This document shows, piece after piece, positions 20,218-22,128 of a stretch of 42,267 bases of DNA. The DNA comes from a virus. Its lineage: Duplodnaviria; Heunggongvirae; Uroviricota; Caudoviricetes. Both the position numbers and the translations under genes were made by a program. Numbering within the stretch: position 1 is the first letter of the stretch; the number at the start of each line of letters is the position of its first letter. The stretch lies in IMG/VR virus record IMGVR_UViG_2541047816_000004, positions 1 to 42,267 of that record; one strand, given 5' to 3'. The notes beneath the pieces are model-generated. The model was not told the DNA's origin. It saw only the letters and a program-made list of their open reading frames with translations, and did not search any database.

Positions 20218-22128
20218 TCATCCTCTCCGGATAAGGCACGGGCGTAATCTGCCAGTGTTTTCTTGTTGGTTGCTGCACCATCCTCTTCCTGCAGGCTCGC
20301 CAGCAGCGCACTGAGATCCAGCTGCCAGCGGGAAATACTGATGCGCAGCGCCGCCAGCGCATAAACGAAGCAGTCGAGTGCCTCATTGCGTCGCTTTTTG
20401 CTGTCCCACAGTATTTTTTTCCTGCCATCCACCCATTTTTCGACCTGCTCTTCAGCAGTCAGCTGCTGCGCTTCGGTCAGATCAAAAATATCCGGGTTAT
20501 TCGGGAAGTGAACGGCACCGGGAAGCGGTTCATGTCAGTGTGAAGCGGTTATAAATCTGCTCTTTCGCGGTATCCGTACCGATTTCGGTAAGGTAAACCC
20601 CGTTTTTGTTTCGCTTACGTGGCATGCTGGCCACCGGCTTTCCGTAGACGGATGCCCCTTTAATGGGGATCACCCGGAACAGCCCATGTTTTTTCGAGCG
20701 TTCATACACAATGGTCGGGTCAATCCCGCCAGTATCCCAGCAGATACGGGATATCGACATTTCTGCACCATTCCGGCGGGTATAGGTTTTATTGATGGCC
20801 TCATCCACACGCAGCAGCGTCTGTTCATCGTCGTGGCGGCCCATAATAATCTGCCGGTCAATCAGCCAGCTTTCCTCACCCGGCCCCCATCCCCATACGC
20901 GCATTTCGTAGCGGTCCAGCTGGGAGTCGATACCGGCGGTCAGGTAAGCCACACGGTCAGGAACGGGCGCTGAATAATGCTCTTTCCGCTCTGCCATCAC
21001 TTCAGCATCCGGACGTTCGCCAATTTTCGCCTCCCACGTCTCACCGAGCGTGGTGTTCACGAAGGTTTTACGTTTTCCCGTATCCCCTTTCGTTTTCATC
21101 CAGTCTTTGACAATCTGCACCCAGGTGGTGAACGGGCTGTACGCTGTCCAGATGTGAAAGGTCACACTGTCAGGTGGCTCAATCTCTTCACCGGATGACG
21201 AAAACCAGAGAATGCCATCACGGGTCCAGATCCCGGTCTTTTCGCAGATATAACGGGCATCAGTAAAGTCCAGCTCCTGCTGGCGGATGACGCAGGCATT
21301 ATGCTCGCAGAGATAAAACACGCTGGAGGGGTCATCCGGCGTCCATTTGAGGCCAAACGGCGTCTCTTTGTCGCCAAATTTAAGATACTGCTCCTCCCCG
21401 CAATGCGGGCAGGCAACATGAAAACGCATAAAATGCGGGGATTCACTGGCTGCACGCTCAATCTGACAGGTGCCTCTCACTTTGGGCGTGGAGCCACGGA
21501 TGGACTTTGGCCAGACCGAGCCTTCAATACGTTTGTCGCCAAGGAACGTCGGAGAGCCTTCCTGTTCAATATCCTCATCAAAGGCAGCAAGTTCATCATA
21601 ACCCGCCACATCCACTGACTTTTCACGGTAGTTTTTTGCCGCTTTACCGCCCAGGCACCAGAAGCCACGACCATTGGAAAAACGCTTCATAGTGAGCGTG
21701 TTATCCCGGTGCTTTTTGCCATACCACGGAGCCAGCGCCAGCAGCGACGGAATATCGCGGATGGTCGGCTCAACGTGGGTTTTCATAAAGTTCTCGGCAT
21801 CACCATCCGTCGGCAACCAGATAAGGGTGTTGCGCTGCTTATGCTCTATAAAGTAGGCATAAACACCCAGCAGCATTTTGGAATAACCGACACGGGCAGA
21901 CTTCACCACATTCACCTCACGGATGTAGTCGCTGCCCATCGCATTCATGATGGCCCGCTGAAAGGGCAGTGTTTCCCAGCGCCCTTCCTGGTATGCGGAT
22001 TCTTTCGGGAGATAGTAATTAGCATCCGCCCATTCAACGGCGGTCTGTGGCTCCGGCCTGAACAGTGAGCGAAGCCCGGCGCGGACAAAATGCCGCAGCC
22101 TGTTAACCTGACTGTTCGATATATTCAC
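20214..22128 (-). pseudogene. A: Terminase large subunit A, interrupted by a frameshift (532-aa N-part 20530-22128, 72-aa C-part 20214-20432)
   Basis: Two track ORFs in different frames match gpA N- and C-terminal regions; total span 1915 bp versus 1926 bp for lambda A (recalled coordinates). Confidence 0.75.

Follow-up and report, generated by a model that had tools for sequence, protein, structure and literature searches.

The window, by which we mean the whole 42,267-nt stretch of viral DNA analysed here, carries a lambdoid prophage whose early region is Rac-like (integrase, xis, recE-like exonuclease, kil, sieB and a ydaT-like gene) and whose late genes are lambda-like. The gene order cos-nu1-A-W-B and the near identity of the DNA to lambda A mark the gene studied here as a lambda-type terminase gene; lambda gene A itself (gpA, NP_040581, 641 aa) lies in the same nu1-A-W-B context with the same cos site. 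The homologue in the window is encoded on the minus strand and, according to the ORF list and its translation, is divided into an ORF of 532 codons and an out-of-frame rest (Table 1). The 532-aa ORF starts with MNISNSQVNRLRHF and ends in EQIYNRFTLT before its stop codon, and three-frame translation of positions 20214-20602 revealed that the C-terminal frame of gpA is open directly past the break, reading HEPLPGAVHFPNN... and HEPLPGAVHFPNNPDIF.... A 72-aa ORF ending in ARALSGEDE occupies a frame different from that of the 532-aa ORF, and no convincing ribosome-binding site was seen by eye upstream of it. The first-pass annotation had proposed that a frameshift splits the terminase large subunit gene A and that the gene spans 11 bp less than in lambda. 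Both proposals were borne out, the split by the ORF list, the three-frame translation and the alignment to lambda, and the shorter span by the one 11-nt gap in the pairwise alignment with lambda. The interval it had assigned to the break, 20433-20532, is indeed the stretch between the two ORFs, but the actual junction (20534/20533) lies one base above it.

Table 1. Features in and around the split terminase gene (positions in the window)
Feature	Position	Strand	Description
Portal gene	18413..20014	-	From the ORF list
Gene W, head-tail adaptor, 68 aa	20011..20217	-	Intact; overlaps the A stop codon as in lambda
Out-of-frame rest of gene A	20214..20531	-	Codons 537-641 and stop; end of the nuclease and portal (prohead) binding tail
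72-aa ORF	20214..20432	-	GTG start at gpA V570; called separately by gene callers
9-nt direct repeat AACCGCTTC, downstream copy	20522..20530	-	Ancestral
Deletion junction	20533..20534	-	GCCGGAAGGGG missing between the two bases; makes ACA-TGA
9-nt direct repeat AACCGCTTC, upstream copy	20542..20550	-	Ancestral
Truncated gene A	20530..22128	-	Codons 1-532 and TGA at 20532..20530; full GpA_ATPase and first three quarters of GpA_nuclease
nu1, terminase small subunit, 181 aa	22103..22648	-	Intact; from the ORF list
cosN, 12-nt cohesive-end sequence GGGCGGCGACCT	22826..22837	-	Intact, by alignment

A direct alignment of the break region with lambda (NC_001416) contained a single 11-nt gap and was otherwise identical over 220 nt. 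The lost coding-strand bases are GCCGGAAGGGG, corresponding to lambda nt 2306-2316 (coordinates derived from the positions of a flanking repeat and of the gene in lambda), and the loss starts at the third position of codon 532 and ends at the first of codon 536. Alignments to lambda and to the prophage of E. coli GmF052, together with the wild-type sequence of strain SCU-125, placed the junction at window 20534|20533 and showed no microhomology there. The new junction reads CTG ACA TGA, so that threonine 532 is kept and the junction itself makes the premature stop codon; compared with lambda A, the window copy thus lacks nt 2306-2316 and ends at codon 532. Putting the 11 nt back in silico gave a clean ORF of 641 codons, and the frame was restored by that change alone. 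Compared with lambda A, the repaired gene shows 17 nt and two amino acid differences (T151S and D185E); compared with the GmF052 copy, it shows a difference of 1 nt. Residues 537-641, now out of frame, are identical at the protein level to gpA 537-641 of lambda. On a larger scale, a megablast search of phage genomes matched window 20100-22250 (2151 nt) to lambda 589-2750 (2162 nt) with 98.7% identity including the gap.

A short direct repeat (gaagcggtt) had been noted at the flanks of the break. The two 9-nt copies of AACCGCTTC are real, but they are ancestral and did not cause the deletion. Wild-type lambda has both of them, at 2289-2297 and 2320-2328, and the start-to-start spacing of 31 nt in lambda is 20 nt in the window. 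The lost 11 nt lie wholly between the copies, both of which were kept. Because the repeat is present in wild-type lambda and both copies survive, it is not a scar of the deletion; slipped-strand deletion mediated by the repeat would have removed 31 nt together with one copy and can be ruled out. We also considered a hairpin, since an imperfect one is possible in the wild-type coding strand, with a 5' arm that approximately coincides with the deleted segment (-9.2 kcal/mol). This fold is no better than those of shuffled controls (z-score -1.0), and we make no mechanistic claim from it.

An exact-protein look-up of the 532-aa product led to its source. The product is EQT96368.1 ('large terminase [Escherichia coli HVH 194 (4-2356805)]'), and the window belongs to E. 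coli HVH 194 (GCA_000458935.1, scaffold KE700789.1), of which a 21,599-nt locus is an exact substring, covering window 10530-32128. The same look-up retrieved a Logan contig of 10,021 nt (L007, run SRR784508, reported in four samples) that encodes the same split into 532 and 72 aa. It carries the same junction, all seven private SNPs in nu1 and cos that separate the window from GmF052, and runs unbroken for 10 kb across the junction, so the lesion is reproducible outside one assembly. Seven more contigs appeared to encode the same 532-aa protein (L006 and L008-L013). All of them end at ...CACACTGACG (last bases CTGACG), and we rejected them as further carriers: they are contigs of wild-type A that simply stop there. 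The ends of these unrelated draft and Logan contigs fall on the identical base, one nucleotide from the junction (window 20534-20540, ...CACTGAC|), and the codon just after this shared end is polymorphic (CCG/CAG). The shared end is probably a branch point of the assembly graph at which co-resident lambdoid A genes begin to diverge.

These observations bear on the question of whether the strain's A is in fact intact, with the 11 nt having been lost in assembly, in gap patching or through a library artefact. Such an error would be consistent with the finding of the allele in one isolate only, across complete genomes and three contig collections, and with its position at a place where assembly graphs break elsewhere, one base from the ends of seven draft contigs. 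However, a second pipeline working from the raw reads (Logan, SRR784508) has the junction inside an unbroken 10-kb contig. An artefact of the assembler is unlikely because this separate assembly carries the same junction and haplotype, and since a k-mer assembly holds a junction only if the reads do, it also provides indirect read-level support, although SRR784508 may be the read set behind the GenBank assembly and not an independent DNA preparation. Furthermore, the lesion is not a homopolymer error, its junction lacks the shared sequence needed for a false overlap join, and the coding regions of the window contain no other isolated indel relative to GmF052, the nearest relative. The evidence at hand speaks against an uninterrupted frame, which the first-pass annotation had named as its refutation, and we regard an artefact as unlikely.

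The allele is absent from the close relatives searched. When the 2151-nt A region was searched against 5,426 complete E. coli genomes, it matched 6,162 places in 4,072 genomes. The seven best records (AR_0017, SCU-125, CU37RT-2, GN02050, GN06667, GN05476 and B2.3) aligned over 2162 nt with 99.5% identity, a difference that corresponds exactly to the 11 gap columns and therefore leaves no mismatch in the A region of those seven genomes. An 80-nt query centred on the junction matched 4,529 places in 3,203 of the same 5,426 genomes, with best full-length matches of 88.9% and 87.9%. These values imply that the copies contain the extra bases, as a carrier of the junction would rank first at 100%. 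The junction was accordingly present in none of about 4,500 gene A copies in the complete genomes, and the exact 28-nt junction had no match in IMG/VR viral contigs, in one genome per GTDB species or in JGI metagenome contigs. By these searches, the deletion appears to be private to one strain. The otherwise complete identity of the A region to seven complete genomes implies that the event is very recent, in support of the earlier suggestion of a recent inactivation, which had been made from the sequence of the window.

We compared the rest of the prophage base by base with that of GmF052, which sits between rspB/rspA and sitD. The ORF lengths of W, B, C, D, E, FI, FII, Z and U, as well as those of V, G, T, H, L, K, J, lom and the tail fibre gene, equal those of the intact annotated genes in the GmF052 prophage. 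Between window positions 8300 and 22500, the two differ by two SNPs and the 11-bp deletion and by nothing else; no second isolated indel occurs across these roughly 14 kb, which hold nearly all head and tail genes. The expectation that every other structural gene is intact was confirmed in this way, and the description 'otherwise intact' is supported for the morphogenesis, lysis and cos parts only. The 12 nt of cosN correspond to the ends of lambda, the flanks on the cosQ and cosB sides are lambda-like as well, and the packaging site is intact. Differences from GmF052 gather in three short mosaic patches of clustered SNPs, which look like the result of recombination with other lambdoid prophages. 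The first (6895-8299) falls in the tail tip I/K region, the second (22515-22704) takes in cosB and the N-terminus of nu1, where it alters several Nu1 codons, and the third (29942-31442) spans the DUF968/rem region. Five of the seven private SNPs of 22515-22704, which serve as haplotype markers, lie in the N-terminal part of nu1 and the other two just upstream of its start codon. The second half of the window matched a prophage in nine complete genomes at 99.5-99.6%, and the first half matched in a subset of them.

Several further features of the element were recorded. Two prophage tRNA genes lie on the minus strand downstream of a Q-type antiterminator gene (27920-27996 and 28098-28173), one for tRNA-Arg (tct) and one for a tRNA with a CAT anticodon that is assigned to Met by ARAGORN and to Ile by RefSeq in sister genomes. 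Annotation of the sister copies names host-affecting cargo genes for the IraM anti-adapter, the hokD toxin, sieB and kil (about 26300-26700 and 31386-31598) and for an outer membrane protein of the Lom/Ail family (2815-3414). Both ends of the window (1 and 42267) fall on gene boundaries, the base after a tail fibre domain gene at one and the stop codon of the integrase gene at the other, which gives the window the look of an interval delimited by prophage prediction. Neither the attachment sites nor the last tail fibre genes are included in it.

To what extent the truncated protein retains its domains can be read from profile matches. The ATPase domain is present (PF05876, GpA_ATPase, residues 47-285, profile 3-237 of 247, E 8.6e-51). 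The nuclease profile PF20454 (GpA_nuclease) matches residues 322-530 over profile positions 2-222 of 294 and resumes in the out-of-frame rest (profile 228-286, E 4.7e-12), whereas intact lambda gpA covers profile 2-286 in one chain. The 532-aa ORF, stopping at position 222 of 294, therefore does not hold a complete nuclease domain in one polypeptide. The break falls within this domain and not between domains, and profile positions of about 223-294 are lost together with the entire C-terminal tail. Nor is the prohead-binding tail attached to the enzyme, as residues 537-641 are out of frame. Altogether, gpA loses 109 residues. A sequence search of the PDB returned no solved relative of lambda gpA onto which the break could be placed. 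Davidson and Gold reportedly mapped nuclease-null mutations in 1992 to a second region near residue 586; if so, cos cutting would be lost as well. Cleavage of cos is probably affected too, judging from the domain analysis.

Lambda genetics offers a direct comparison for the loss of the tail. Sippy et al. 2016 (PMC4856287), with reference to Sippy and Feiss 1992, Frackman et al. 1984 and Yeo and Feiss 1995, state that gpA contacts the portal through its C-terminus. They describe the Aam42 mutation as a stop at the fifth-to-last codon that leaves out the last 5 residues; the resulting terminase still nicks cos but is unable to bind proheads, and very little phage is produced (PMC4856287). Like the truncation in the window, Aam42 is a C-terminal truncation of gpA that removes the same tail; unlike Aam42, the truncation in the window also takes part of the nuclease, and a deletion is not suppressible as an amber codon is. 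A loss of 109 residues must be at least as severe as a loss of five. With both the nuclease end and the C-terminal tail gone, and with Aam42 already defective, we strongly infer that the prophage would be unable to package its DNA, as the first-pass annotation had surmised. The defect could be complemented in trans if a second prophage of the same genome supplied a compatible terminase.

Whether translation could bypass the lesion deserves consideration, as a +1 shift at the new stop codon does recover the native C-terminal frame (...FTLT-EPLPG...ARALSGEDE). Leaky recoding at ACA-UGA-A would yield a 637-aa gpA lacking residues 533-536 (PEGD), which might be partly functional, and natural alleles differ at residue 533 (CCG/CAG), so that changes in the missing segment may be tolerated. 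By inspection, however, there is no slippery site in ...TTCACACTGACA-TGA-ACC, where tRNA-Thr on ACA cannot re-pair on CAU, and no Shine-Dalgarno-type stimulator like that of prfB in the upstream TATAACCGCTTCACACTGACATGA. None of about 4,500 homologous copies shows the arrangement, nor did it turn up in the scans of viral, genome and metagenome contigs, and a junction unique among so many copies is not a conserved recoding signal. The programmed +1 frameshift of prfB (RF2) and the -1 frameshift of lambda G/GT share with the junction only a formal geometry, an in-frame UGA with continuation in the +1 frame. In contrast to prfB and G/GT, the junction has neither a slippery codon nor an upstream stimulator nor conservation and is not of that class. 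Any +1 product would be expected at the level of background frameshifting only, and a partly functional enzyme made in this way is extremely unlikely. A split terminase, in which the 532-aa piece and a separately translated C-terminal piece together form an active enzyme, could draw on the 72-aa ORF, which has a GTG start and spans the portal-binding tail. Yet neither piece would include residues 537-569, since V570 is the first codon at which translation of the C-terminal frame could start, and the pieces would meet inside the nuclease domain and not between domains. The ATG made by the junction leads into a third frame of 18 codons; translational coupling through the ATGA start-stop overlap was considered and rejected, as it opens this third frame and not the C-terminal one. 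In our searches, no related phage or prophage shows such a design intact, the other splits have different break points, and the other split copies look like decay or noisy assemblies. The chance of an active two-piece enzyme is close to negligible. Slightly more room, though still very little, is left for low-level +1 frameshifting at ACA-UGA-A or for a selected role of the truncated gpA(1-532), which together we consider very unlikely. If this were nevertheless true, a packaging-dead gpA(1-532), for example one still binding Nu1 and cos, might interfere with superinfecting lambda-type phages, and under a selected role the lesion would be a domestication step and not mere decay.

A different question is whether the prophage was non-viable already, the deletion being a second hit in a cryptic element, which is compatible with a real deletion. 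The replication module (window 32090-35054, minus strand) looks incomplete, as no P/DnaC-like helicase loader was recognised in it. Directly after an O-like ORF (35054..34035, 339 aa), which had no match in Pfam, come DUF977 and, beyond it, cargo genes for NUDIX and HAD hydrolases. The annotation of the SCU-125 and GmF052 copies lists their DicB, DUF1737 and DUF1327 genes as partial, and the SCU-125 copy (L002, a 44.9-kb locus) has an independent IS903B insertion in J and a frameshifted tape measure gene. These gene remnants, the missing recognisable loader and the damage in SCU-125 suggest that the prophage lineage may have been under relaxed selection for lytic growth already. On the other hand, the head, tail, lysis, nu1 and cos parts are all full length and nearly identical among the carriers; integrase, excisionase, repressor/cro-like and Q-type antiterminator genes are annotated as intact in the sister copies; and an unrecognised loader gene is no proof of a replication defect. 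We treat earlier non-viability as a possibility to be taken seriously, if a somewhat doubtful one. In SCU-125, the tape measure frameshift and the IS903B-split J are located at 30971-33470 and 35873-40418, and gene A is intact; set against the A deletion of HVH 194, this damage indicates that sister strains decay independently in different late genes.

With these alternatives weighed, we consider it highly probable that gene A of the lambdoid prophage of HVH 194 carries a genuine, strain-private and very recent 11-bp deletion that blocks packaging, the block being deduced from lambda genetics. The deletion shifts the frame and the junction creates the TGA, so that the cell can make only gpA(1-532). 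This protein keeps the ATPase domain and the first three quarters of the nuclease but lacks the nuclease end and the portal-docking tail. Nu1, cos, proheads and tails should still be producible. The complex of terminase and DNA would be expected to fail in docking on proheads and probably could not cut cos properly, leaving no packaged prophage DNA. This course fits the usual deletional decay of lytic genes in prophages.

Other breaks in gene A provide a wider context, since lambda-type A genes are commonly broken in their 3' part. The 72-aa C-terminal fragment is called as a gene of its own in 775 blocks of the protein collection, in genomes whose A is disrupted in various ways and next to partners of 504-561 aa, with database names that include Shigella sonnei and E. 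coli. Further frameshifts in the 3' part of A, at about window 20440-20530, were observed in L015 (2854-3024), L018, L022 and L017. Three cleaner-looking split copies for which the sequence was determined (L015, L018 and L022) have mutations that differ from the 11-bp deletion; in one example, the loss of one G after a run of five Ts, ~60 nt downstream, gives products of 553 and 72 aa. These E. coli and Shigella prophages resemble the HVH 194 element in that the same gene is broken in its 3' part and the same 72-aa ORF is left, but their mutations are independent, none has the 11-bp deletion, and the neighbours of A in L015 are intact. Small deletions likewise inactivate lytic genes in the cryptic lambdoid prophages Rac, Qin and DLP12 (Bobay et al. 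2014; Khan and Wahl 2020), and terminase genes are among the classes preferentially lost in degraded prophages (PMC7744054). Unlike Rac, Qin and DLP12, the HVH 194 element, with about 42 kb and all morphogenesis genes at full length, is at the very start of decay.

The gene, its function and the type of lesion are well known, and the allele is a new, private instance of ordinary prophage decay. Its main value lies in correct annotation, since the prophage looks complete to predictors yet should be scored as packaging-defective. It also offers a clean natural example of the first step in the decay of a prophage. More broadly, the 3' part of the lambda-type A gene has suffered independent breaks in several lineages of E. 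coli and Shigella, which fits the known preferential loss of terminase genes.
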